DNA of 64,000 bases from Myripristis murdjan (lineage: Eukaryota), in NCBI RefSeq assembly GCF_902150065.1, contig NC_043987.1, forward strand, positions 1,625,386 through 1,689,385. The letters are read 5' to 3'. A program made the translations under genes and the position numbers. Under the pieces are notes generated by a model. It saw nothing but the letters and a program-made list of their open reading frames with translations, was not told where the DNA came from and ran no database searches. Each line of letters begins with the position of its first letter. The stretch's first letter is position 1. Shown in pieces: positions 2,856-63,790 of this stretch.

Positions 2856-3433
2856 AACTATCCCTTTAAGCTGCTGATGTTACAGATTCCATATTACAGA
2901 CTGTAGCTGTCATGATGTTTGCATGTCTGCTCTGACTCAGGCTAATAATAACAATGTTCTTCATCATGTGCTGCAGAGAATGTAGTTTGATGAAAAGTTG
3001 AATTGAATTAGTTGAATCAACTGAAGAAAGCCTTTAAAATACTGGACACGTTTTAATGCAGTCACTTTAAATTACAGTTCTTCAATCAAATCATCCAAAC
3101 ATGTTTGATCATATCTGTATATCGAGGAAAGATTGAATTCCTGTGACAGGGCCTGTTTAAGGGCTTATGGGTAAGGTGATGCGGTGTGTTGAAGTACAAG
3201 TAGATTAGAAACTGATGTTATGAGACAAATAAGATTTTTTCAAACAAACAAACATCCATGTTAACTTCCTGTCATTAACTGTACAGTTTCCCACTTCCGT
3301 GACAAGCCTGTCGAGCAGCGGCTCAGCCACAAGAAAACATGGGAAGGGAGCAAGTGACCATCAGTGCGCTGAGGTCACAAGGTGCTGCTGCATGCTGGGA
3401 GATGTGCCTCGCTCATGTTCATTAACCCCCAAA

Positions 3434-3878
3434 CAGGGGCGGATCTAGACAAATATTCATGGGGTGGCAAGAGGGTGGCATGGAGACTTTAAGGGGTGGC
3501 AGAAATATTTTTGCTAATTTAATACCAAACGATCCCATATATCAATATTTGCTTGGAAAACCCCCAAATGAGGATATTTTAACTCAAAAACATTCCATTA
3601 TTGTGGTACATGAGTAAAGCATTGAATAGAAAAGCAAAAGGTGGCATTAGAAATATATATTTTGATTTATTTATTTATTCATTTATCAACCCCTTAAATA
3701 GTGGGAGTGTCATCTTTTGCTGCATTTACTTGCACTCGGACATTTGAGTTCGTTTCCGAACAGCCACAATTAAAAAATAAATAATTAAACTGTCTGAAAT
3801 TGGGGTGGCAACTAGGGTGGCAAGGCATTTTTCTAGGGGGGCAGCTGCCACCCCCTGCCACCCCCTAGAACCGCCTAT
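3434..3878. mobile_element. hAT-like MITE (445 bp) with a perfect 8-bp target-site duplication, CCCCCAAA
   Basis: Imperfect 15-bp TIRs CAGGGGCGGATCTAG (3434) and CTAGAACCGCCTATG (3864-3878). They are flanked by identical CCCCCAAA at 3426-3433 and 3879-3886. Internal GGGGTGGCA / TGCCACCCC repeats are present. Confidence 0.7.
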
Positions 3879-4598
3879 GCCCCCAAATGACTGTCGTCCT
3901 CGTGAAACACTCTGATATTTGGCTGAAAACAAAACACATTTATCTTTTGGAATGAGGCTTTTTGAAAAGGTATAGTGTATAGGTAGTGCCCAGGAATTTG
4001 GTTCCTTCATTTATAAATGTTTTTTTAAGAAGTAATCAGACTGGACACACAAAACAACACCTCAAGCACACAGGCCAGTGCAAACAAAGCCGCTAATATC
4101 TCATAAAAAAACAGCAAATCCCTGTGCCCATTTTTTTTTTTTCATGTAATTACAATTATTTGTGAATGTATTATCAGGTTGTTTCCTCTTGGCACAAGGT
4201 TATTATAAGTTTCCTGCAGATGCTACCTGCTAGATCAACTTTCCATTTCAAAAATAACAACATTCAGTTTCCAAAAGAATGGGCACCAGGCCTTGCTGTT
4301 TTTGTGGACTCACATCACGCCCAGCTCATACAACCAGCACTCCACCAAGTTCACTTCTGCTTTACCTTACATGCACATTTTCCTTTGATTTGCACACTTG
4401 GCTTGGCCGTGTGTGTGAGATGTGTTTGCACCTGATGCATATGGCTCTGGATTAAGCAGCACCCTCCTCCCCGTCTGACAGGTTGCAAGGCTTATGGACG
4501 ACAACATGCCCCGCCCATCTGAGCCTCTTGGTCAAGCTCCCAACCCTTTGGCTCAGTGGCAACCTGTCCTTGTTGAAAGATTTCAGCACATCACAGGC

Positions 4599-7134: not shown

Positions 7135-7629
7135 TTAAAAGTCTGTGGTTCCATGAAAAACCATCAACTGCTGAAGAAGCACTTTGTTCAGTGGATTGTT
7201 CTCTATTTGGAAAAAGAAAAGAAAAGAAAAGAAAAGTACCTTCATTGAACTGGCCCAGCCAAGAACTGTTCTGAAAAAGGTTCTTTGGAGAGTTTTTTTG
7301 GTTTGTTTTGGGTTTTGGTTCAAATTCACCCCTCAAAGAACTTTTCGATGGGTTAAGGGATTCTTTAAAGAGTCATTGAAGAAATGGTTCTTTAAAGCTG
7401 GGGCAGGTGACTTTGCAGAGTGGGTGGACTTTTGTTGACTATGTGAACTCAAGCAGCTCAAACTGCCCCCAACTGAGATTCAGCCCCTCGTCCAGTCCAA
7501 TGCAGTGGGGGAGACGGGGCTGGCAGGGAAACTCCAAATGACAGAATAATTGAATAACTGAAGTGATTCGAATGAGATATTTGGATCAGATTCCACCGAG
7601 GTTATTACAGGGACAGTTCAACCATCTTG

Positions 7630-7785
7630 AGAAATATGATATCTCACTTCCCTCCAGCTGTTCTATAGGACAGTAGTGGTGCTCTCTTCCTCTCATTGTT
7701 ACTGAGTGCTGGATACTGGCTGGATGCTCCACATGCTAACTGTTAGCCTCCTGCCACTGAGCTGAACTTCCCTCCTAACCTTGAT
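7630..7785 (+). mobile_element. SINE-like element copy (TLCD3B intron 2)
   Basis: Sequence ccagctgttctataggacagtagtggtgctctcttcctctcattgttactgagtgctggatactggctggatgctccacatgctaactgttagcctcctgccactgag. Confidence 0.65.
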
Positions 7786-9642: not shown

Positions 9643-10262
9643 TAAGATTTAATTTAACAGTGTTAATGTCCTCAAGGGATTGTTCACCCTATTTGAATAA
9701 TTTGATGTTATCCCCCAGCTGTTGTGTAGGACAGTAGTGGTGCTATCTTCCTCTCATTGTTACTGAGTGCTGGATACTGGCTGGATGCTCCACATGCTAA
9801 CTGTTAGCCTCCTGCTATAAATTGGAATAACCTTGACTGAATTCAGGATTAGTGGTAGAAAACACTAATCTTGCCTTTGCTCATGAGATAAACTGCTATA
9901 ATCATGAAAGTGCAGAGATTTCAGCTGTTATTCTTGTCATCAGTGTCAAATGTTCTACATGCTTTTATCACTTGATTAATTCAGTGAGCTTTCAGTGCAC
10001 TTATTGTTGGCCACTTTATCCCTCTGGTTGCTGACAAGCTTTAAGACAAAAGACTAGTCTGCTTAGCGAGGGCTAGTGATAATCCCTGCCTTATGTGATC
10101 TGTGAGGTGAGTGACAGCTGATAGTGGAAACAGACAGTTAATCTGATCCGAATCCTCCTGCATGCCATGGAAGACAAAGCATAATTTGTGCATTGATAAA
10201 TATGTGTCTTTAGCCTATTTAAAGACAGAGATGGGGGAAGCACAACTAATGTCTAGCAGCAA

Positions 10263-11932: not shown

Positions 11933-12167
11933 GTATGCCTCCATCCCAGTGTACATGGTACCCCTGGTGGCCCCATGGCAGTGCAACATGGGAGCGGCTC
12001 TGCTCATGGCTCTGCAGTTCTACTGGTTTGGCCTCATCTGCAGAGGAGCCCTCCGCCTTTTCACCAGAAAAAGCCCACCGATGCCCACAGAGGAGTCAGA
12101 TGGCCGTCCACCCCCGGACAGCCAACCCGTGTCCCAGCAGCTGGAGGAAGAGACACACAAACACTGA
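11933..12167 (+). CDS. tlcd3b: TLCD3B-like terminal coding exon (ends TGA 12165-12167)
   Basis: Acceptor cttgtgttctag|G. Translation YASIPVYMVPLVAPWQCNMGAALLMALQFYWFGLICRGALRLF...THKH*, from ORF 11922-12167. Total CDS is 864 nt, 287 aa, in frame across all six exons. Confidence 0.85.
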
Positions 12168-12589
12168 GCAACAGAGGACAGAGCAGCAGTATGAATGCAG
12201 ACACGATGGCTGACACACTGCAACAGTCTGCTGCAGTGACAGCTGCCAAAAACATTAAGGAGGGAACTGCTAAGTGACTTGGGCAGGTTGGATCTTTGAC
12301 CAGCAGAGTGGAGTGGAGGGACGAGTGTCTCTCCTGCTTTGATGTCCAACAGAAAGAAGAAGGGAGACATGGCAGTGAAGGCCAAACAGCAGCTCTGACT
12401 GAGCGGTTAATGCAGAAGTGAGGCGGCTCAGAGCTCAGTGAGCAGGGAGAGGCTGTGGCAGCTGCCAGGGACACAGCGGGACACGGCTGATGGGGCGAGG
12501 GGCTGACACTGTGTTAGTGGGACACTGTGGACACCCAACCTGAGCCTGCCGGGACCCGCCGGCCTTTGTGGCCGTTACACTTTTGTGGT

Positions 12590-17399: not shown

Positions 17400-17600
17400 C
17401 TGTTCTGTTCTGTGCTTTGTTCCTCTCGAGTGCTGGATACTGGCTGTACACTGTTCAGTGGCAGGAGGCTAACAGTTAGCATGTGGAGCATCCAGCCAGT
17501 ATCCAGCACTCAGTTACAATGAGAGCAAGATAGCACCACTACTGTCCTACACAACAGCTGGAGGGAAGTGAGATATCACATTTCTCAAGATGGTTGAACT
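17400..17600 (-). mobile_element. SINE-like interspersed element (about 190 bp), full-length copy, reverse orientation
   Basis: Consensus, forward orientation: ttaaagggatagttcacccattttgaaaa..gtgatattatttcacttccccccagctgtt.taggacagtagtggtgctatcttcctctcattgttactgagtgctggatactggctggatgctcca(c/a)atgctaactgttagcctcctgccactgaggtggacttccccccagctaac. At least 15 full or partial copies occur in the window. Confidence 0.7.
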
Positions 17601-18473
17601 GTCCCTGTAATAACCTAGGTGGAATCTGATCCAAATATCTCATTCGAATCACTTCAGTTATTCAATTATTCTGTCATTTTCATATCACATTTTCCATAAT
17701 GGGTGTACTATTTGTTTAATGTATAGTGTGTGACTTAACACATTTATTTTTTCAATTCATGTGATCAGTTAAATGGAAAAAAAGTTCAAAGAAACATTGT
17801 TTCTTCATGCTTGTTTTCAGTCGATTGCTTTGTTTAGCAATCTGTGAATATGTCATCAGTTTGTTTCAGCTGACAGATTGTCACAAAGTTCTCCTAAAAG
17901 CCTGTGACTGCGATGAGTCACTGTTTAAAGACAGTGACTGTCCCACAGTAGCTGCTGTTGAAACAGGCACAGTGGAGTGTATTCTGTGGAATGTGAGTGA
18001 TTGACTTAAACTGACAGACTGAGTGAATTCATCATTTTGTGCTGTGTGTGTGAACCTCAGATTAGTTTGTGCAGTAGGTGTGTTTACATACCTGAAGGGT
18101 GTGTCTGACGTTTGACCAAGAGAGGGAACAATCACAACCAAATTTGAGTGACATACTCCAACAGGGATGGGCAGTCACGTGCCACGGAGGGCTGGGAGTC
18201 AAGCTGAGCCCAGGTCAGCCCCCGGCACGCCGTTTCATTGGCTGGTTGTTCCTCTCTGGCTGAATGTGTGTTAATCAATGAAAACTGACTTGAATGGAAA
18301 TCTGCAGACTCTTGACCCTCCGTGGCACATGATTACTCATTCTTATCCGACAAAATGTTTTTCCTCAAATGTTCAGATATTCTTGCACTGATTGCTTGAA
18401 TGGGGGTTATGTTTTTGCCTCATTCTGTCTGTTTGTTTGTAAGCAGGATATCTGCTTAAAAATGTATGTATGG

Positions 18474-21117: not shown

Positions 21118-22393
21118 CACTGATTCTTGGGAATTTGGATAAATCATGTCCCACTAAGAAAAATGCTATTTCTGTTTTAATGAATAAAAAGAATCAAGGG
21201 CATAATCAGGGGGTCCTTTTCAAATTTGTAAGGTTCTTTTATAGGTTTATTTTTAATTTTTATTAATTTAACGATTATATGTTGGCCCATGGCCTATAAA
21301 ACCAGCTGTCTTCGGATAGGAGATAATAATTTCAACTTGATTAAAACAACAAAAAGTAATAATTTAATTGAATAATATATTTACCACATGAAAGAGTACA
21401 TCATAATATGTATTAAAAACTACAAACGATGAGTTTTGAACAATATTTACTATTTTGTGGTTGCTCAAAATGTGTCCCACATATTCGTCACCACCGTCAG
21501 ATATATATTTAAAAAATAATAATAAAAAAACTACAAGGTCAGTTTCATTCCTGAGGAGCCCTTTTCAAACCTTCAGCTCTACTGCATGCTTCAAGACCGC
21601 TCAGGCTCCTGGAAGTTTGCTGTTTTCTCTTAAATTTCTTCATATTTTTGGACACTGCTACTGTCACAACCATAACATGTCAACACTGTCACTTTGTATA
21701 AAAAATATTAAATTAGATTATGGAATAAATGTATACTTTTTAAGAAGAGGTCTGATGCAGGTAGCAACAGGAGGGAAACAAGCTGGCTAATGTGAACAAC
21801 TCGTATATCATGTGAAAGAGCAGGTTTTTGTCTCCACCGTCAGACGTCACCACCGTCAGGTTTTCTGTGTGACGGTGATGACTGAAGTCTGAAAAATGCT
21901 TATAACAGAGCTCAGGATTGTTATTTTTTGTACCAAATAGTTAAATAAAGTTGTTAAGCAAGAAGCCATTGACTTGAGTGGTATAACTTTTGGAAATGTA
22001 TGTTTTAATGAGGCAACTGTCACCACCGTCAGATTAGTGTCACCACCGTCAGAGGCACTTATATTGGTTTTAAATGAATATGCTTACAATATGTTTCTTT
22101 GGTGCTGTTGAGTTATTAAAGTAATAGTCTCTTTAATACAAAAATATGTTTTTCAAAAAAAAAAAAAAAAAAACATTACGGTGACGGTGTTGACAAAAAC
22201 AAAGTAGCCTAATAACTGGAAAAATTCTATCCTATTGTATAAAAAAAAATGCAAAATGAGGAGGTTGCACCGGTACATTGCTGAACAGCCAAGACCTTGG
22301 TCTATAATGATATACCTTCAGATTTTATAATTTAACACACTTTTTTTTTTTCAAAATTAAAACCTGTTTTATCCAAATTCCCAAGAATCAGTG
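21118..22393 (+). mobile_element. TIR DNA transposon copy A (1276 bp, nonautonomous): 26-bp TIR CACTGATTCTTGGGAATTTGGATAAA, 4-bp duplication TTTT
   Basis: Perfect terminal inverted repeats cactgattcttgggaatttggataaa and tttatccaaattcccaagaatcagtg. The copy is more than 90% identical over its full length to 32250-33507. Internal CACCACCGTCAG motif occurs at least 7 times in both orientations. Confidence 0.8.
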
Positions 22394-22688
22394 TTTTATT
22401 CTCTTCTTTTACATATTTTATATTTTTTTATGTCCTCCTTTGTTTTACATTTTTGTCTTCCTTTGTTTGTACATATTTTACCGTTTCTGTATCTCAGTGT
22501 CTTTTAGCTCCATCTTTTATATATCTTACTGACATTTGTTTTTGCTGCTGCTGTCGTCTGTTTTTCAGTTGATTGCTTGGTTTTATGGTGCAGGATTTGC
22601 ACTTGTTTGAAATTGCCTGTTTTAGTCAGTTGTTTTTTCACTTTATTGCAAAGCACTTTGAGGTACACCCCCTGTATAAAAGGTGATA

Positions 22689-27501: not shown

Positions 27502-28075
27502 TGAAGCAAATAGGAAAAAGGCAGATTTTAAGCCAAAACTCTGAATGTGATCTTGAACAGTTTATTTTTGCAGCATCTGTTACCATGGCGATGAAGCCGG
27601 GTCAAAAGAGAGCCGCCTTCATGACACGGCAAACTCTGGCTTTTGACTCAACTTACCTTGCTAACCTGTTAATCTTGCTTCGTAGTACAGCCCTCTGATG
27701 CAAAATGGTCCAAAAAGGGTTGCAACATGTTAAGCTGGCCTGTACTTGGTCATTAATAGATTTTGAAAGATGTCACATTTTATATCCCACCAAAGCTGAC
27801 CCCAATCGCAGTTGGCAGCATACATAAAGGCCCTTTTTTCCTAGTTTGGTACACACAGGAGGAACTGAAGGTTAACATTTGGAGCATCCAGCCAGTATCC
27901 AGCACTCAGTAACAATGAGAGGAAGATAGCACCACTACTGTACTACATAACAGCTGGGGGGAAGTGAAATAATATCATATTTACAGAATAGTTGAAAGAA
28001 GGGCACCCTTTGTTGAGCCGTAGGACTTCCCTCTCATCTCTGTCCTCCCTCCCCATCTCCTCTCCATGTCATCAG

Positions 28076-32249: not shown

Positions 32250-33507
32250 CACTGATTCTTGAGAATTTGGATAAATCATGTCCCACTAAGAAAAATGCTA
32301 TTTCTGTTGGAAATTTGCAACATTTTAATGAATAAAAAGAATCAAAGGCATAATCAGGGGGTCCTTTGCACATTTGTAAGGTTCTTTTATAGGTTTATTT
32401 TTAATTTGTATTAATTTAATGATTATATGTTGGCCCATGGCCTACAAAACCAGTTGTCCTCGGATAGGAGATAATCATTTCAACTTGATTTAAAACAACA
32501 AAAAGTAATAATTTCATTGAATAATATCTTTACCACATGAACAAACGATGGGTTTTGAACAATATTTACTATTATTTTGTGGTTGCTCAAAATGTGTCCC
32601 AGATATTCGTCACCACCGTCAGATATATATTTAAAAAATAATAATAAAAAAACTACAAGGTCAATTACATTCCTGAGGATCCCTTTTCAAACCTTCAGCT
32701 CTACTGCATGCTTCAAGACCACTCAGGCTCCTGGAAGTTTTCTATTTTCTCTTAAATCTCTTCATATTTTGGGACACTGCTACTGTCACAACCATAACAT
32801 GTCAACACCGTCACTTCTGTATAAAAAATATTAGATTAGATTATGGAATAAATGTATACTTTTTAAGAAGAGGTCTGATGCAGGTAGAAACAGGGCGAAA
32901 ACAAGCTGGCTAATGTGAACAACTCATGCTGATCATGTGAAAGAGCAGGTTTTTGTCTCCACCGTCAGACGTCACCACCGTCAGGTTTTCTGTGTGACGG
33001 TGATGACTGAAGTCTGAAAAATGCTTAGAACAGTGCTCAGGATTGTTATTTTTTGTACCAAATAGTTAAATAAAGTTGTTAAGCAAGAAGCCATTGACTT
33101 GAGTGGTATAAATTTTGGAAATGTATGTTTTAATGAGGCGACTGTCACCACCGTCAGATTAGTGCCACCACCGTCAGAGGCAGTTAAATTGGTTTTAAAT
33201 GAATATGTTTACAATATGTTTCTTTGGTGCTGTTGAGTTATTAAAGTAATAGTCTCTTTAATACAAAAATCTGTTTTTCAAATTAAAAAAAAAACATTAC
33301 GGTGACGGTATTGACAAAAACAAAGTAGCCTAATAACTGGAAAAACCGATTTTATGAAAAAAATGCAAAATGAGGAGGTTGCACCGGTACATTGCTGAAC
33401 AGCCAAGACCTTGGTCTATAATGATATACCTTCAGATTTTGTAATTTAACGCACTTTTTTTTTTTCAAAATTAAAACCTGTTTTATCCAAATTCCCAAGA
33501 ATCAGTG
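32250..33507 (+). mobile_element. TIR DNA transposon copy B (1258 bp) in MVP intron 7, 4-bp duplication AGCT
   Basis: Same TIRs and internal organisation as 21118-22393. Flanked by AGCT|...|AGCT. Same orientation as copy A. Confidence 0.8.
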
Positions 33508-34131
33508 AGCTACTCTAGTAGAAGGGACTCTTGGGACCTTCAACTGACAACATTCCAGATCTAACCTTTACCATCAGCACTTCATTTCTAACTTAAACCT
33601 CCACCACAACCCACATCTAACCTTAAAGGGATATTTAGAATTTATTGACCCAAGTTTGTATGACTTAGTCGCTCCTATTTATATTGATACATGGATAATA
33701 TCTCCACAGACGACTCCTGCAGTCAGAGTTGTGGCTAGTTGTGGGATTGAACAGTTAGCTAAATCAACAGCATGTAACTGCTAATATTTTGAGACACAAA
33801 TAACAGGTTATAAATGTTTAAAGAGACAGTTAATGCATTTTGAAAAAAAAAAAAAATTCTCTTACCCCCAGCTGTTTTGTAGGACAGTAGTGGTGCTATC
33901 TTCTTCTCATCATTACTGAGTGCTGGATACTGTTTGGAACTATTAGCCTCCTGTCATTGAAGTGGACTTTTTAAAAAAATAATCGTCTTTATCAACATAT
34001 ATCAGATGCCAAGACACTAATTACAGACACTAGATCTGTCCTTGGGAGCATTTGATGGTCACTTTAAGGTTTTTGGCAACAGATGTGTATCAGTAGACCT
34101 TTTTTCACAGTGGCCATTTTGAGTTGAAATA

Positions 34132-38134: not shown

Positions 38135-38332
38135 GGTGGTGTTTGGGCCAGAGATGGTGATGCTGGGGCCAGACGAGCAGTTCACTGTCCTGTCACTGTC
38201 CGGGGACAAACCCAAGAGGGCCAACGTGATCAAGGCCATCTGCCTCCTGCTGGGGCCGGACTTCTTCACCGACATCATCACCATCGAGACAGCCGACCAC
38301 GCCCGGCTGCAGCTGCAGCTGTCCTACAACTG
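38135..38332 (+). CDS. mvp: MVP coding exon 10
   Basis: Acceptor tcttgtcgacag|G and donor TG|gtaaag. Translation [65 protein letters not shown](W). Confidence 0.93.
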
Positions 38333-38609
38333 GTAAAGCATGGCTGTCAGTCAAGCCACCACACACAGCTGGAAGGGGGGGAAAATCTGCCTCACTTACT
38401 GTTAGAAGTTCATTTAAGACATTCTACAAATCATTGGGAGCGTCTATGTAATTCAGTGTGCAGCACTTATTTCAGTTACATCTCAGTGACATGGCTTTCC
38501 CAGTTATTTCTACAGTATCCTAAACCAAAATACACTGTGGTGGGTGGCATCAAAGTAAAGTACATTATTCATCTGAAGATGTTCATTTAGTTTCCCATTT
38601 TCTATATAT

Positions 38610-39425
38610 GAAGTTAGGATGTTCGTAGATACAGACTATACAGTTTCTTGTTTACCTTGACATGTTTTGACTGCTGTGTGTCCTACAGTCTTCCTCAGAA
38701 GTTTCACATGATATTACCATGACATTTCCTGTCAGCTGTAGGTAGGACAGCCATGCCCCCTGCTGTGCAACAGTGTCATCAGGATGGCGTCCCATGTATG
38801 TAGTGGCTGGTTCCCCTGTCCTTTCCATATTTCTGTCACCTCTTTGATCCAACACTGGTATCTGTTGATGTGATGATCTTGGCTCCCTCCTAGTCCATAA
38901 CATGGTTTTCCCTTTTACAACTGTCGGAGACCTACATAGAGGAAGCATGCTGATTATTTGGCACGTAGGAAAAAAGAATGTGAGAAAGAAACATCTGGAG
39001 TGCACACCTGAGCAACAAAACCAAAAGCAGATCAGGAAGTTGGAAATCAGCAGTTTCAGACAATTGCAAAAGTGAAAAATATGTCTTGGAGAGGAAGCCA
39101 AGATCATCACATCTGAAAGGAACAGGTACCAGCACTGGTTCAAGGAAACAGGCCCAGAGAACTGTAAACCAGGATTAGGGTGCCTACCAGCTACCATGCA
39201 TCTGGACACTGTCTCTGATGTGGCTGTCAGACAGCAGGGGGCATGGTTGTCTTAACAGGTCAGGTAGGGCAACCAGACCTGTGTTAAACAGCTGACAGGA
39301 AATGTCACAGTAACATCATGAGACACTTGTGAAGAAGACTGCAGCACACACAGCAGTCAAAACATGTCAAGGTGAACAAAGAAACACCACGTCCAAATCT
39401 AAGAACATCCTCACCTGAAGTACAA
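38610..39425. repeat. Foldback / long imperfect inverted duplication (arms of about 330 bp at roughly 75-80% identity, about 120 bp loop) in MVP intron 10
   Basis: The reverse complement of 39090-39420 aligns with 38613-38900, for example aggatgttc...ccttgacatgttttgactgctgtgtg at both ends and gccaagatcatcacatc / gatgtgatgatcttggctcc near the centre. The 185-aa minus ORF 38652-39209 is an artefact of it. Confidence 0.7.
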
Positions 39426-39643
39426 GGTGTCTATAAAGTCTCTTTACAATTTAACACTTTTATTACAAAAGCAAATGAATAGACAAATCTGTGGAAATTA
39501 TTACAAAATGAGGAGTAGATATTGAAGTTTTTTTTGCCTCATTTAATACACTCCTATATGGGCACCATTAGTTGCACGAAGCACATCAAGACAGACAGTA
39601 CTCCATTTCTTGCCATGTTCGATGTAGCAGAGCCTCATCAATG

Positions 39644-42494
39644 CACTGGCGGTTCTGGGGAGGGGCCAGCAGGGGCCAGTGCCCCCGTAACACTGTGCCC
39701 CCCCCTCCGAACAAAGATTTTACATTGTGATGCGGCTTTCACATAGCGTGCGGTTTGGGCCGCGCTCTGCGCTGGGTACAGCGCACATAGATCTATGACG
39801 GCGCACACTTGCGCAGAGCAGCGTGCACACGCGGGCCATTTCTTCTTGTGGTTGTTGGCTCTGTACAGGACACTTTAGAGATGCTGTGTCAAACATAGGG
39901 GCATCAGGGGGACGGTGCTGTTATTTCCTATTACTGACAAAGAAATGAGACAAATGAACTGGAGGGAAAACTGGTTCACTGCAGCCACAAAGAATAGAAG
40001 ATATGTTACTTTTTAATTTTTTTTATTTATACATTTATTCAATTTTTTTTTTTTCTTATCGTTGGGCAACAGGTACAGTAGCCCTAAATGGATCTTGAAT
40101 TGGAGCATTTTAAATTAAAAGCTGAAACTGAAAAAACAAAATTGGAAAGGACAAGACACACACACACACACACACACACACACCCCAGGTCCCGTCCCCG
40201 TATCAAGGAGCAGGCGCAGGCGGTATGGTATTAACGGCAACGACCGCAGTCTTCATGTCGGTGACCCTGACCAGAAGCCACGGAGCAGTTCTTGGCACAT
40301 CATGGTGGCGCAGTCTGGACAACAGCACGGTCCTTGCGACCAGATGTTCAGCAGGCCAATGGACCGTCTCCATGACAACAGTGATGCAAGCATTGGCTCC
40401 TCCTAGCAGAAGAGAGCGCCTGCATCCGTCAGCATCACCAGTCTGTGGACCCTCATAGTCCAGTAATTTTAGCCCAAAATTGGGTCAACCTAGGACAAAT
40501 AACAAGAGAAGCAAATTGCAAGAGTTTTTTTCTCTTGCAATTTGTCCTAGGTTTTTTCCTAAAATGACTGGACTAATAGTCTCTGCGCAGGCTGCACCGA
40601 CCACCGGAGACCGGCCTGAGGGGCGCACCTGCTGTGCAGCTAGCAGAGCCAGCTGGAGAGCCCGCCTGGGAAAGGCGAGACTCGCTTGGTCTTTGCTCAG
40701 TCTGAGAGCAGATCCAGCAGATGTGGACACCCCCCCCCCCGCTGAACTTGGAGGGCGGACACACACTGCCGAGCGGCCAGCCCTATACAGACAGCCTAAC
40801 CTGGTCTCAGACCAGCCGAAGACCAACTCCAGCATGTGCGACACACACCTGCTGCCGAGCCGGCTTTTTATGGCCTCTGCTGCTCCGGCCAGTGACGTCA
40901 CCAGTCAACCAGATGATGAGGACGCACGCGCAGCATAGACAACACCTGGGACAGTGCTCAGTACTTTACAGTCACCTGCACAGATACTTGTTTGTGACGG
41001 ACGGCATGACGTCACAATGGCTACAGCTCTACATTCTGCATTGTTGATTGTTTTTTGTTTGTGTCCACGGACACTGAGTATGCAGGTAACACATCCGCTC
41101 AGTTAAAACAGGCTATGGTGCTAGAGTTTGAAATTTGGTCTCAGCCTCAGTTGATGCTGAAATGACGATGAAATAGTCTGTGTGCGATTAAGATGAACAT
41201 TGTTATGAGGTGAGACAAACAACTGGAACTGCAGAGTGTATGGACCTTTTGTTTTGCCACTTGTGCTCCTTGCTTGAGTTTGTACTGTTTCCAATGATGT
41301 GCAGTGTGTTTCCTGTCATTGTGTGTGTTGTTGTTGAGCCTTGCTTTGTTCTAGCACCTCCAGCAGGCCAAAATGTTGTAGCAGCTGTAGTGGTGGTTGA
41401 AATTTTCTCTTGGTGTGTTTTTATCAGGCGGTAACTGGAACCAAGTTCCATAATCTGAATGCAGCTCTGTTTACACAAAGGCGTTCATCATGAAGGGCAC
41501 GCATGCACAGCGTGCACGTATGTGGCGCTGGTTGCTACGCGACTGAAACAGACGCTAGGAAGTAGTTTTCCGTTCTGGCGCAATTTTTCTCTGGTGGACA
41601 GCACAGCAGCTTCGGATGCACCGTGTAAAGAGGCTAATACATTTTTTAATTTATGAATTAGCTGAACTAATGCTTCTTAATAAATTAAGTTACATGAACG
41701 AAGGCTGTATTTTTTTCTCATTTCATGTGATTTCACCTGTTACCTGTTGTGTGTGTGACTTCACATGGAATTTTATAATAAATGTATGACTATACTGCAT
41801 TGTCTTTGCAAGAGTAGTGCATATCTAATGATGTCATTCATCTAGATTTCTAAAAATAAACGCAGACCAGTGCGCTCTTGCGCTCCCTGATCACATACAC
41901 AATGAATGGCTGAGCCAGCCGCGGTCTGTGCCGTGCGCGTGCTCTGTGAAAGCCGCTTCAGAGCGTTGCACCTGGAAACGGCGGTCAGTTTTGTTGATCT
42001 ACGGTGAAAACAGCGAGCTCGAAAAGTCAACCACCTGATGAGAGGCAGTCAGAAGCAAGAAGCGACTACCATGAACAATATTTTATTGTTACAAGGTAAC
42101 AATAAGCTTTTAGAGTGTAAATATGATGATGATTTATTGATGAAGATGATAAGAAGACAGTGGTGTAATGAAGATGTGATGATGATGTTGATGAAACTGC
42201 CTGATAAAGATTTTAGAAGCAGGAGTTTGTACTAAGTGAGGAGTTTGTCTGTACTAAGGTTACACTGAAAAATAGGATGTCTCCATTGTTTCTGTCTCTT
42301 ATACTTGTGTCTCAAATGTGATATTTTGAACCATTCAGTTTGGTTACAATGGGTTATCACTGGTTTTATTGGGAAAAAAATCAGATATAATTTTGAGTCT
42401 TTGTCTTTTTTGCCCCGGGTTGAATGTGCCCCTCTGACAAAACCCCTGGCCCCAGCCAGGGCCCTTCAGTAAAATTGGTCTAGAACCGCCACTG
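39644..42494. mobile_element. hAT-like element (2.85 kb) with a perfect 8-bp target-site duplication, CATCAATG, in MVP intron 10. It has long subterminal inverted repeats and a GC-rich core.
   Basis: Termini CACTGGCGGTTCTGG (39644) and CTAGAACCGCCACTG (ends 42494). Identical CATCAATG at 39636-39643 and 42495-42502. Subterminal inverted repeats gcggctttcaca(t/g)agc at about 39745 and about 41950 (reverse). Core 40560-41050 is CpG-rich with two TGACGTCA palindromes. No transposase ORF. Confidence 0.7.
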
Positions 42495-42765
42495 CATCAA
42501 TGGTGGCAATGGCATCAGTGATCTTTTGCTGAAATACACAAATGCAATATGATTAAAAACTTTGATAACCACTGAGTACATAGAACAAATCTGATGAACA
42601 TATCTCATCAATTGCTTTTGTAATAGATTTTTTTAATTTGTAAAGAGACTTTGTGGACACCCTGTACTTGCTACTTGATGAATCACAGGGGTACTGGATT
42701 GAAGCGTGGCGACCCCTCTTCTTCTCTGTTTTCCTTTATCCGTCTTCCTGTCTCACTCTCTTCAG

Positions 42766-42910
42766 GCACTTTGACGTCAAGACTCGGGCAGATGCTGCTC
42801 AGGCAGCGTCTCTGTTTTCAGTGCCCGACTTTGTGGGAGACGCCTGTAAAGCCATTGCTTCCCGGGTCAGAGGTGCTGTCGCCTCAGTGCAGTTTGACGA
42901 TTTCCACAAG
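42766..42910 (+). CDS. mvp: MVP coding exon 11
   Basis: Acceptor tctcactctcttcag|G and donor AAG|gttggt. Translation [48 protein letters not shown]. The preceding 4.4 kb intron contains a foldback and a 2.85 kb hAT-like element. Confidence 0.93.
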
Positions 42911-48962: not shown

Positions 48963-50439
48963 CTACTTCACATCAAAAGGAACACTGTGAAAAAGGTCAA
49001 TAGAATCTAAATGATATCTTTTTGTGTTATGCATGGTCCCAGTCAAAAATTGTAAATTGCATGTTAATGTGATTAAAGGATTGGAAAAAATGGAATTTAA
49101 AACTCAGGCATATGTCTTTACTTAGAGGGTCAATGCTGCAGTAAATCTACATTTTATAACAACCTGCATAAAGTTTTTTTCCCCCAAGTGCCAAATATAA
49201 AAGATATTTTATCCTATTACCTTTGTTAAAGGTACTGTTATATAATTGTGTTGTTTTTTGTTTTTTTTTAATACAGTGTTTTCATGCATTCACTCAAGAA
49301 GCTGTTTATCAACTGATTCACAACTTAGCAATGTAAGAGATATCTAACTGGTATATTGGTATATGCAAAATGTGGCTCATTTTGAGTGCTCAGTGAACTT
49401 ATCCTAGAAGAATAAAGCCAAATGAATGTGATTTCCTTTCTTTACACTCTGTTTAAAGGGATAATTCACCCATGTTGAAAAATGTGATATTATTTCGCTT
49501 CCCCTCTAGCTGTTATGTAGGACAGTAGTGTATTTCCAGGTGGTTCCCCTTGCCAAGGCAACAGCTGTACACATTCACTGAAGTCACTTCATCAGCAGAG
49601 GTTTGTTTATGTTATTGAAAGCCTGATGCATTTTCTGTTGTCACAGGACTTAACATTTTTATTAATACTGCTGATTAGGATTATATAACATCATAACTTC
49701 AGGTAAATGTGCTGGTATGCACCTCAACATTGCCTTAAGCGTGCAAGATACTGTTGCAGTTTTGGTTCAGTAATAGGACCTATCAAGTGGTGCTAATTAC
49801 AGCTTGATGAGGTTAGCAGTCTGAGCCACAGCAACATCTTGTGGACAAAATCAAATGGCACTTTGTACTTTTGTTCATAGTACCAGTGAAGATGTGCTAC
49901 ATGGACAGAAGTATTGGGTGACCAGCACAAAACATGTACAGAAGCCTTTCCTAGCTTCCACTCTTCTGGGAAGGCTTTCTACAAGATTTTGGAGTGTATC
50001 TGTGGGAATTTTTGCCTAACAGTCCCCATCTTGCCTTTTCCTTTTGGAAAACTTATAACATTTCCTCTAGCTGCCTTCTTTTATCATACACCATTGCAGC
50101 AGGACACAGTGGCCAAACCCAAGCTTGTTTTTCTATCACATACTGTGTTTGAGGAAACTTTGAAACTGAGGGAGAAATAATATCCCACCATAACTACACT
50201 GTTAATTGCTTGTTGAGAATATTGTCCAGCTTTATGACCTGTGAGGTAAAGCAAAGGTGGCTGTTTTGTTTTGTGCCTATTTAGGTCTAAGCCACATGTA
50301 TGTGTATACTTTATTTCCAGTCATATGAGCTCATTATCAGTTAAAGGCATGGTTAAAATCAAATTTTTTTGGTGAGGACGTCCTCAAAATGGCTTGTGCT
50401 TGAGAGAATCCTAACAAAGACAGTGCCTTTGAGAACTTC

Positions 50440-50643
50440 GTTTCCCAGAATGCCGTTCGCTCGTTTTGACGCAATTTCTTGGATAAATACAGCCTGACAG
50501 GGTTTGTCCGTTAGTGACGCTGATCGGAGGAGGTGTGTGTACGCGCGGTTGCGCTCCGGGGCCGTTTCTGCTAAAACTGTATTTGAAAACAACAAAAAAA
50601 AATCCAATAAAATAGAAATCTAACCAACTCTGGTTTTGCAACG
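50440..50643 (+). promoter_or_regulatory. arl6ip1: ARL6IP1 promoter / 5'UTR region (CpG-rich)
   Basis: There is a cluster of CpG dinucleotides (cgttcgctcgttttgacgc ... acgcgcggttgcgctccggggccg) immediately upstream of the ATG at 50644. Repeats are absent here, unlike most of the window. Confidence 0.5.
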
Positions 50644-50679
50644 ATGACTGAAGGAGATAACAAAAGCGCCAATATACTG
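50644..50679 (+). CDS. arl6ip1: ARL6IP1 coding exon 1
   Basis: Sequence ATGACTGAAGGAGATAACAAAAGCGCCAATATACTG|gtgagt translates to MTEGDNKSANIL, matching human ARL6IP1 MAEGDNRSTNLL. Confidence 0.88.
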
Positions 50680-52046
50680 GTGAGTATTAACCAAGCTCTC
50701 ATTGCAAACGAAAGTAACAGAATGTTACAGTTGTCATTGTTTGTGTAATGTTATCCTAGCTGCGACTGCTGGCTCTTGCTATCCTTGCTAATCTCTTGGT
50801 GGTCTTGAGGTCGATTTTATGGCCTATGTATGGATTAGTTCATACACCCGGAACCTCGCAATGCGCTACAACCTAGCATAGCTACAGTTGATTTTCTTGT
50901 CCATTTACGGAACTTGTGCTTTTTCGGTGGTGACGCTAACGTTAGCTAGCATTAGCAGGAAAGCTCGGTACGCCCTTCACTGTCAATGGTAACGTTAACG
51001 AGTAACTAATGTTAGCGAGCTTGCTAACATTACCGATGTAATCTTGCTATCGATAGCGTGTTATTGGCTCTATTAACTATTGACAGTAACCTTGCAAAAT
51101 CCATAGATAACGCTGAAAACTGAAAGTGACCGTTTCTTGTGATTGACGTATCATAGTGTAAACTGGACCGATAGGTTCTCGTCTGTTGTAAAGACGAGAC
51201 AACGCTGCGTCAAACTTTGAAATTTCAAATTCAAAATTTGGCAGGTTAATGTTGTCTCCGTACTTGGAGCTGTACGTTACACACCTGACAAGTTAAAAGA
51301 TTTAAGACTTTTTACTAACCTTCAGGGTCCAGTCTTAAATTAACATACCACCAGTGTATAAAGCAAAAGTCAGTTAAGTTTATCTCAACCTTTAATCTGC
51401 CGCACCTGTTAGCAATCCCGTTAATTAGCATACTACAATCTTCTTCCAACGTAAGTTGAGACTCCTAGCAGTGCGTAAGCAGGAAGCTTGAACAAATTGT
51501 AGAAGTTTGAGATTTTAGTAAAGTGCTGGTTTGGGGTCGTGTGTGTGCCGAATTTCACTAGTGGCACATCTACTCAGAAAATATTCGAAATAGTGTTAAA
51601 CAGGTAAACGTGTTCGCTGACAGGCAGTTGGACACAAAATTACCTCATATTTTAATGGACCTTAGTGTGACAGCAGGTGTGTTGGATAATATATAATGTC
51701 TTCTAACGGTTCATTGGAGGATAAGGGTTACAGCCACAGCTGCTGAAAGGAGGAAAATTGCTACATAACAGCTACCCACGAGCACAAAGGTTGCATCCAT
51801 TAAGAGGAACCCTGGGTTTACCGAAGTCCTGACACAAATACACCCTTTCTTAGGTGCCACAAGTGCAGCACACCTACAGTTAACTCCATTTAGCTCAAGA
51901 ATCATGACCATAGCTTGGTGCATGTATAATCTGATTTTTAGTTTCATTTTTGAGGTTGTTAAGGAAAACAGTGATAGGTGTGTGACTGTGATCCAATGAC
52001 TCTGATTATTCATTTTAATTTATACACTATACTTGTGTTTCTGCAG

Positions 52047-63609: not shown

Positions 63610-63790
63610 TTTAAAGGAATAGTCCACCCATTTTGAAAAAAAAAATGGATATTTCACTTCCCCCCCAGCTGTTCTGTAGGACAGTAGTGGTGCTGTCTTC
63701 CTCTCATTGTTACTGAGTGCTGGATACTGGCTGGATGCTCCAAATGCTAACTGTTAGCCTCCTGCCACTGAGATGTACAGCCAGTAATCT
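63610..63790 (+). mobile_element. SINE-like element, full-length copy (+)
   Basis: Same family as 17400-17600. Other copies or fragments: 1540-1600, 2541-2610, 2700-2770, 7630-7785, 9710-9825, 10830-10880, 23720-23810, 27875-27990 (-), 30525-30640, 31000-31070, 33865-33960, 49455-49560, 62180-62300 (-). Confidence 0.7.

Follow-up and report, generated by a model that had tools for sequence, protein, structure and literature searches.

A non-autonomous hAT-like transposon with two CRE palindromes in its core lies in intron 10 of the Myripristis murdjan MVP gene

The insertion found in intron 10 of the Myripristis murdjan MVP gene is very probably an ordinary, lineage-specific, non-autonomous transposon of the hAT type, the GC-rich core of which has no demonstrated role in MVP expression. 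Throughout this work, the window refers to the whole 64-kb stretch of DNA that was analysed, and positions are counted from its first letter. The host intron, the element, and the element's ends are placed as follows, with a strand given wherever the feature has one.

38333-42765, plus strand: MVP intron 10, host of the element (4,433 bp; located by tblastn with the annotated Myripristis murdjan MVP isoforms)
39636-39643: left target-site duplication, CATCAATG (8 bp)
39644-42494: non-autonomous hAT-like transposon (2,851 bp, with target-site duplication and terminal inverted repeats)
39644-39658, plus strand: left terminal inverted repeat, CACTGGCGGTTCTGG (two mismatches against the right repeat and the family consensus)
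39659-39700: G/C-rich subterminal motifs, AGGGGCCAGC in 1.9 copies and GTGCCCCC, common to the right end and the metagenome relatives described below
42480-42494, minus strand: right terminal inverted repeat, CAGTGGCGGTTCTAG (given as minus-strand sequence)
42495-42502: right target-site duplication, CATCAATG (8 bp)

The MVP exons on both sides of the element match Myripristis murdjan MVP at 100% identity per tblastn, with one exon ending at 38332 and the next starting at 42766. By coding-exon count the intron between them is the tenth, and its boundaries (G/GTAAAG and TTCAG/G) are of the GT..AG type. All eight annotated Myripristis murdjan MVP protein isoforms (8/8) are spliced straight over intron 10 and skip the element, and in these annotated coding isoforms the element leaves with the intron. 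In two related orders the same MVP intron is shorter, at 752 bp (Centroberyx affinis) and 1,208 bp (Diretmus argenteus); the element retrieved no match in either orthologous intron, with alignment confined to the intron ends. Within the 64-kb window, no second copy of the element was found. The first-pass annotation had reported an exact duplication around the element, and this holds: the window contains the 8-bp sequence CATCAATG in two places only, 39636-39643 and 42495-42502, each directly at an end of the element.

Terminal inverted repeats of about 10-25 bp beginning YARNG were taken as the mark of a hAT terminus. The right end of the element begins CAGTG and the left end CACTG, one substitution away, and the two 15-nt repeats agree at 13 of 15 positions. 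Just inside these repeats, GGGGCCAG and similar G/C-rich motifs are common to both ends. Elements sharing the terminus also give 8-bp duplications. One of them is a second element in the window (3434-3879, 446 bp), which has the same terminus and the 8-bp duplication CCCCCAAA. Others were retrieved from JGI metagenome contigs of eukaryotic DNA, where the shared terminus is partly imposed by the search pattern and where an 8-bp duplication with at most one mismatch was found at 34 of 49 terminal-repeat pairs (exact at 19), giving at least 34 such copies. Duplication lengths of 5-7 and 9-11 bp fit none of these 49 pairs, and only 8 fits. Taken together, the 8-bp duplication, the CAGTG-type terminal inverted repeat, and the 8-bp duplications of the relatives bear out the earlier description of a hAT-like element in MVP intron 10, and by its structure the element fits a non-autonomous hAT-type transposon. 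The assignment is a structural one because neither an autonomous partner nor a transposase was found. Pfam searches of all six frames of the element yielded no domain and no transposase, an enzyme that in hAT elements combines a BED finger, an RNase-H-like catalytic core and the dimerisation domain PF05699. For nine ORFs nothing rose above threshold, with two sub-threshold matches (E>0.1) attributable to chance.

The insertion site itself was compared with the target preferences of hAT elements, nTnnnnAn (Ac-type) or nnnTAnnn (Buster-type), which are a tendency and not a strict rule. CATCAATG matches neither preference, whichever strand is read, and among the metagenome relatives the duplications show weak position biases only, with no apparent nTnnnnAn consensus. 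An origin in another superfamily that makes 8-bp duplications (P, Zisupton, or Mutator-like) would accommodate these off-pattern sites, as well as the lack of a hAT transposase linked to the termini in this copy or in the contigs of its relatives. We nevertheless consider such an origin highly unlikely, as a short 15-nt repeat starting with CAGTG together with strictly 8-bp duplications in 34 relatives constitutes the classical hAT signature. Moreover, the terminal repeats of P and Zisupton elements are longer and different, and Mutator elements usually make duplications of 9-11 bp.

The metagenome relatives belong to a MITE family (contigs L003-L122, animal host) in which the terminus CAGTGGCGGTTCT is followed, after a spacer of 5 nt, by GGGGCCAG and a GGGGCAC/GCCCCC palindrome. 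The spacing of these terminal motifs equals that at the left end of the Myripristis murdjan element. The MITEs are 100-270 bp long, apart from one of 1.5 kb, and have interiors unrelated to the window element; BLASTN of the element against 120 metagenome loci produced no matches, and hence no extended similarity. No convincing transposase ORF was found in the contigs of these relatives, and six-frame translation of contig L120 gave no long ORF. An 837-aa ORF in contig L042 was considered as a transposase candidate and rejected, as it encodes a DUF7869 protein unrelated to hAT. We would also record as a separate observation that the fish element has its CAGTGGCGGTTCT...GGGGCCAG terminus in common with a MITE family that is abundant in invertebrate-like metagenome DNA.

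Between its ends, the element of intron 10 is laid out as follows.

39700-39850: left subterminal CpG-dense block (CpG observed/expected 1.12; contains the left arm of an inverted repeat, 39728-39752)
40156-40183: (AC)14 microsatellite
40185-40455: GC-rich core, left part (GC 0.58, CpG observed/expected 0.65; the nested palindrome divides the core)
40456-40575: nested palindrome, 120 bp, TA-flanked (terminal repeats GTCCAGTAATTTTAG and GTCCAGTCATTTTAG, matching at 14 of 15 positions; contains the hairpin)
40480-40938, plus strand: 152-aa ORF, judged to be a chance frame (TTG start within the palindrome)
40576-41085: GC-rich core, right part (GC 0.59, CpG observed/expected 0.58; carries both CREs)
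40893-40900: CRE palindrome TGACGTCA, inside the 10-nt palindrome GTGACGTCAC
41007-41014: CRE palindrome TGACGTCA, with a half-site TGACG at 40995
41850-42030: right subterminal CpG-dense block (CpG observed/expected 1.15; contains the right arm of the inverted repeat, 41936-41960)
42031-42479: AT-rich right arm (GC 0.38, CpG observed/expected 0.18)

Long subterminal inverted repeats had been described for this element and were not recovered. Beyond the 15-nt termini there is a single inverted repeat of 20-25 nt, in addition to the shared G/C-rich motifs. Its placement is asymmetric, with the left arm 84 nt inside the left end and the right arm 534 nt inside the right end. The element as a whole is asymmetric because of its AT-rich right arm.

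A strong hairpin does exist at 40487-40553, with a free energy of -34.3 kcal/mol when folded as DNA (z = -9.6), but it is not the perfect hairpin that had been claimed. Its arms pair at 86% of positions across 29 nt, the perfect inner stem comprises 13 nt only, and the whole forms the inner part of the 120-bp palindrome. That palindrome has both terminal inverted repeats and a TA duplication (TA/GTCCAGTAATTTTAG...CTAAAATGACTGGAC/TA, 40456-40575), and judging from these features it is most likely a nested Tc1/mariner-style miniature transposon (MITE) and not a regulatory structure. It resembles MITEs of the Tc1/mariner type (Stowaway-like) in being a near-perfect palindrome of about 116 bp with 15-nt terminal repeats and TA on both sides. 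No second copy of the palindrome was found within the 64-kb window. An E-value scan of the intron against Rfam gave microRNA-like matches on the palindrome, all of them sub-threshold, while a whole-window Rfam scan at the gathering threshold and a tRNA scan returned nothing.

A history for the insertion can be proposed on this basis. Transposase supplied in trans would have recognised the CAGTGGCGGTTCTAG termini together with the neighbouring G/C-rich subterminal motifs, and the element would have been excised elsewhere and pasted into a MITE-like repeat already present in MVP intron 10. The 8-bp duplication CATCAATG would have arisen when the staggered cut was repaired. The element is probably immobile now, because it has no transposase, carries two substitutions in its left terminal repeat, and contains the nested TA-flanked palindrome.

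The 152-aa ORF exists and is without a recognisable homologue, as the first-pass annotation stated, but it has a TTG start only and begins inside the palindrome; its first in-frame ATG, at 40565, is also within the palindrome. The ORF retrieved no Pfam match and no homologue among 5.8 billion proteins. In 117 of 1000 simulations with matched composition, an open frame reached or exceeded 159 aa, which is the longest stretch without a stop in the region. We judge that the ORF is open by chance in GC-rich DNA, because it has no homologue and its length is within chance for the composition. Protein searches with the long core ORF of each strand produced no credible homologue. The one match of a 138-aa minus-strand ORF (E = 5e-4, the sole match among 1.84 billion representatives) is to a repetitive low-complexity protein and was judged spurious. 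An exact look-up of a 108-aa ORF found no record.

The core had further been presented as the most GC- and CpG-rich non-coding block in the window. This is correct for GC (0.58) and incorrect for CpG, in which the core (24 CpG per 500 bp, CpG observed/expected 0.58-0.65) is surpassed at 50.4-51.3 kb, where a promoter-like island has as many as 26 CpG per 500 bp and a CpG observed/expected ratio of 1.0-1.2. Across the whole element the ratio is 0.60, against a window mean of 0.36, and it peaks in the subterminal blocks and not in the core, with three smaller blocks within the element reaching 1.06-1.15. To count as a CpG island, a stretch had to span 200 bp or more, with GC not below 0.5 and CpG observed/expected not below 0.6, although in fish a ratio close to 1 is more reliable. 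By this definition the stretch 40731-41080 qualifies at 0.64, and the core overall is marginal, at 0.58-0.65 with GC 0.58. Partial protection from methylation could explain the excess of CpG in the core over the window mean, and so could a young insertion. Enriched k-mers pointing to transposase-binding repeats were not found in the core. Most plausibly, the core with its two CREs is element-internal sequence, namely the remains of the 5' or regulatory region of the parent element.

Both of the perfect CRE palindromes previously noted in the core were confirmed, as TGACGTCA at the two positions listed above. This sequence occurs three times in the 64-kb window, the third time in MVP exon 11. 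Shuffling predicts 0.46 occurrences, and none of the shuffles contained as many as three. The two core copies lie 114 bp apart and exceed what a random interior should contain; no sign of an internal duplication as the origin of the pair was seen, with weak scattered repeats only. Such a cluster of two perfect palindromes and a half-site within 120 bp, above chance, speaks for a reading in which the core would be a transposon-borne CREB/ATF-responsive promoter or enhancer, acting in sense or antisense and giving a short non-coding transcript or modulating MVP. The surroundings offer some further elements for this reading. On the minus strand, a TATA-like ATAAAA (40866-40871) is located about 19 nt downstream of the first CRE, and AATAAA signals follow after roughly another 0.8 kb. 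The plus strand offers an ATG (41017) whose Kozak context is good, with CAG/GTAAC after it at 41086, and the CpG ratio of about 0.6 in the core is higher than the window mean. However, that ratio is half that of the 50.4-51.3 kb island and lower than the subterminal blocks of the element show. In a CRE-driven promoter the CRE would stand no more than about 250 bp upstream of a start site, ideally together with a TATA box; no canonical TATAWA box and no CCAAT, NRF1, or ETS motif was found, and no annotated MVP isoform uses the region. Neither strand is favoured by the promoter-like signals, as would be expected of chance. An active promoter or enhancer of this kind appears improbable.

In a second reading, the transposon would have picked up the core from a host gene, as a promoter and first exon, by a Pack-MULE-like transduplication. 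The 0.8-kb GC-rich block is unlike the AT-rich remainder of the element in composition, and the ATG at 41017 opens MATALHSALLIVFCLCPRTLSMQ, followed by a GT donor in a manner resembling a signal-peptide first exon. The putative exon has just 23 codons, too short to search, and no signatures of capture were found at the boundaries; the six-frame Pfam searches and the protein searches with the long core ORFs of the two strands were all empty of homology. Capture is, in our estimation, very unlikely. Neither the promoter nor the captured 5' end gains support from the CpG ratio, the ORF, the hairpin, or the annotated isoforms. What the statistically unusual motifs leave is a putative latent CREB/ATF-responsive promoter or enhancer at the CRE pair, which we regard as unlikely. 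Fainter still is the prospect that the hAT family as such carries a CREB/ATF module (two CREs and a half-site) that may have spread to many soldierfish loci and might give a cAMP-inducible transcript, sense or antisense, within MVP.

As it stands, the insertion adds another non-autonomous DNA transposon to the introns of a teleost genome rich in repeats; it is spliced out with its intron and matters little. It does offer a caution, in that hairpins and ORFs in the GC-rich interiors of transposons can be chance or nesting artefacts. Should the CRE pair be a true, family-wide, active regulatory module, the element would be of modest interest as a DNA transposon distributing cAMP-responsive elements.

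Among known systems, the medaka hAT element Tol1 likewise produces duplications of 8 bp and exists mostly as internally deleted copies. Its ends begin CAGTAGCGGTTCTAG, followed by a GC-rich subterminal region, and would match the present termini at 14 of 15 positions. A literature search with the terminal-repeat string and Tol1 returned primers and reviews only, and no Tol1 terminal sequence; the putative resemblance is offered as a lead.

For the CRE pair, the closest concept is that of PMC2820524, in which a DNA transposon is reported to have brought ready-made transcription-factor sites to medaka dmrt1bY and rewired it. The concept is alike, whereas the Myripristis murdjan CREs are putative binding sites read from sequence.

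With respect to the non-autonomous hAT elements generally, that is, the internal-deletion derivatives of the maize Ds type and the hAT MITEs, the window element differs in having no transposase remnant inside and no identified autonomous partner, in a duplication that departs from nTnnnnAn, and in its strongly asymmetric arms. It is like them in its 8-bp duplication, its short CAG-starting repeats, its G/C-rich subterminal short repeats, the absence of a transposase, and an intronic site that splicing tolerates.

By tblastn with a human MVP query, sixteen colinear plus-strand MVP exons were located from 23.1 to 47.6 kb, and in a homology search the MVP protein assembled from this eukaryotic window found its best match in Myripristis murdjan (pinecone soldierfish) MVP. 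All eight annotated M. murdjan MVP isoforms match the exons flanking the 2,851-bp hAT-like element (39644-42494) at 100% identity, all eight join the exon ending at 38332 straight to the exon starting at 42766, and none uses the element region. The host intron is 4,433 bp long with boundaries G|GTAAAG...TTCAG|G and is the tenth by coding-exon count, so the label of MVP intron 10 given in the first-pass annotation is correct. The orthologous intron measures 752 bp in Centroberyx affinis and 1,208 bp in Diretmus argenteus; because both align to the soldierfish intron over only about 40 nt per end, the intron's interior, element included, is specific to the soldierfish lineage.

The sequence CATCAATG was found just twice in the 64 kb, at 39636-39643 and 42495-42502, both times touching an element terminus, which bears out the exact flanking duplication described earlier. 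The termini (CACTGGCGGTTCTGG on the left and, as the reverse complement, CAGTGGCGGTTCTAG on the right) are identical at 13 of 15 positions, and motifs rich in G/C, among them GGGGCCAG and GGGGCAC, are present close to both ends. The long subterminal inverted repeats previously reported reduce, beyond the terminal repeats, to a single internal inverted repeat of 20-25 nt, whose arms (39728-39752 and 41936-41960) lie at unequal distances from the element's ends, 84 nt on the left and 534 nt on the right. Within the 64-kb window, no second copy of the element was found. Since no Pfam domain was detected in its six reading frames, this copy is non-autonomous.

What had been taken for a perfect hairpin (40487-40553; DNA fold of -34.3 kcal/mol, z = -9.6) forms the interior of a 120-bp palindrome (40456-40575), with outer arms GTCCAGTAATTTTAG and CTAAAATGACTGGAC and TA on either side. 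Rfam returned only sub-threshold microRNA-like matches for the palindrome, as is typical of any long hairpin. On the simplest reading, the palindrome would be a Tc1/mariner-style MITE inserted into the hAT element, and its insertion would have split a continuous GC-rich block into 40185-40455 and 40576-41085. The element itself appears to sit within an older repeat, whose inverted arms (AAGTACAAGGTGTCTATAAAGTCTCTTTACAA...) flank it at about 39417-39478 and 42608-42670; minus the hAT insert, this repeat would be a MITE-like element of approximately 0.4 kb.

The GC-rich middle of the element (the core, 40185-41085) had been described as the most GC- and CpG-rich non-coding block in the window. 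This is true of GC, as its peak of 0.58 is the highest of any 500-bp non-coding block, and the rival block at 12.0-12.5 kb (12023-12513, GC 0.57) includes what seems to be a terminal coding exon (...LQFYWFGLICRGALRLFTRKSPP...KH*) of the gene upstream of MVP. It is not true of CpG, as the window's most CpG-dense block is 50371-51300, with an observed/expected ratio of 1.0-1.2 and GC of only 0.42-0.44. That block contains an ATG exon at 50645-50686 (ATGACTGAAGGAGATAAC...CTG and then GTGAGT, CTG|GTGAGT) and resembles the CpG-island promoter, together with the first coding exon, of the gene downstream of MVP. The ratio is 0.58-0.65 in the core, 0.60 in the whole element and 0.36 on average in the window; set against 1.0-1.2 at 50.4-51.3 kb, this makes the core a marginal CpG island at best. 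The element's densest CpG blocks lie outside the core: two are subterminal (39700-39850, 1.12; 41850-42030, 1.15), and a third is internal (41480-41620, 1.06, in the right half). The core's CpG content could equally well reflect a GC-rich transposon that is fairly young and still retains its CpGs.

The 152-aa ORF (40480-40938, plus strand) is present and, as first noted, without recognizable homology: it has no Pfam match, and a search of 5.8 billion proteins found no homologue. The frame is open solely with a TTG start at 40480, which lies, like the first in-frame ATG (40565), within the nested palindrome, and open frames of this length or more arose in 117 of 1000 composition-matched simulations of the region. 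We conclude that this ORF is due to chance. For an overlapping 138-aa frame on the minus strand, the single match (E = 5e-4) was with a repetitive protein and was judged spurious.

Perfect CREs (cAMP-response-element palindromes) number three in the window against 0.46 expected, and two of them, those reported earlier, lie in the core within 114 bp of each other (40893-40900 and 41007-41014); the pair is real and unexpected by chance. A half-site is located between them, and no obvious internal duplication was found as their source. The third TGACGTCA (42772-42779) was rejected as a regulatory CRE, being coding sequence of MVP exon 11 (codons H-F-D-V-K). With this beyond-chance pair, promoter activity of the core, or its origin as the 5' remnant of a captured host gene, keeps some probability. 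Against a promoter, a plausible layout can be read on either strand: on the minus strand a CRE is followed after about 19 nt by ATAAAA, with AATAAA about 0.8 kb downstream, and on the plus strand a CRE is followed by a Kozak-context ATG at 41017 and CAG|GTAAC at 41086, an ambiguity that chance would produce too. Moreover, the core contains no canonical TATA box (TATAWA), CCAAT, NRF1 or ETS motif, its CpG content is marginal, and the annotated MVP isoforms (0/8) do not touch it. We consider regulatory activity of the core improbable and its origin as a captured piece of a host gene slightly more improbable still; neither idea gains support from any of the tests made here.

The object is, as far as its sequence indicates, an ordinary transposon of the hAT type, non-autonomous and carrying a nested MITE; the intron around it is lineage-specific and full of repeats. 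The initial description was largely real but overstated or misread in the subterminal repeats, hairpin, CpG rank and ORF. Elsewhere in the window, two repeat blocks of about 1.2 kb (21175-22402, upstream of MVP, and 32323-33516, in intron 7) lie 11.1 kb from each other and are 92-97% identical, as two copies of a young transposon might be. A further high-copy repeat, probably from a SINE or MITE family, was also seen:

7536-7760, 9712-9828, 17455-17679, 27871-27971, 63661-63778 and others; both orientations; high-copy short repeat, about 100-225 nt, 85-97% identity

JGI metagenome contigs were scanned for CAGTRGCGGTTCT followed after 2-32 nt by GGGGCCAG, giving matches in at least 120 contigs (L003-L122) that clearly represent one abundant repeat family in animal-like DNA. 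Among the matches listed, nearly all contain CAGTGGCGGTTCTAyGTTGGGGCCAGGGGGCACAGGCCCCCAAATCTTGCCC..., with a 5-nt spacing identical to that at the element's left end; the terminus common to family and element is partly imposed by the scan pattern itself, and BLASTN found no extended similarity between them. Family members are mostly MITEs of 100-270 bp, predominantly 160-270 bp (for example in contigs Ga0209679_* and Ga0056123_*). The matches listed include 49 head-to-head terminal-repeat pairs, whose flanking octamers differ by at most one mismatch in 34 and are exact in 19; no duplication length other than 8 bp fits these pairs. No transposase tied to these termini was found in the metagenome contigs. 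One metagenome MITE is adjoined by an ORF of 837 aa that carries a DUF7869 domain (contig L042, 1-2511; also L099) and possibly encodes a transposase-like protein belonging to another mobile element.

A mismatch-tolerant search of the window retrieved a second related element, a 446-bp hAT-like MITE at 3434-3879 (3426-3887 with flanks), with terminal repeats CAGGGGCGGATCTAG and CATAGGCGGTTCTAG, subterminal repeats of GGGGTGGCA, and CCCCCAAA as its exact 8-bp duplication. Its terminus places it in one group, GGCGGTTCTAG, with the 39644-42494 element. Given the 8-bp duplications in both the metagenome family and this MITE, termini of this type are reliably paired with 8-bp duplications. An 8-bp duplication is the classical hAT signature. 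The medaka hAT element Tol1 starts with CAGTAGCGGTTCTAG.
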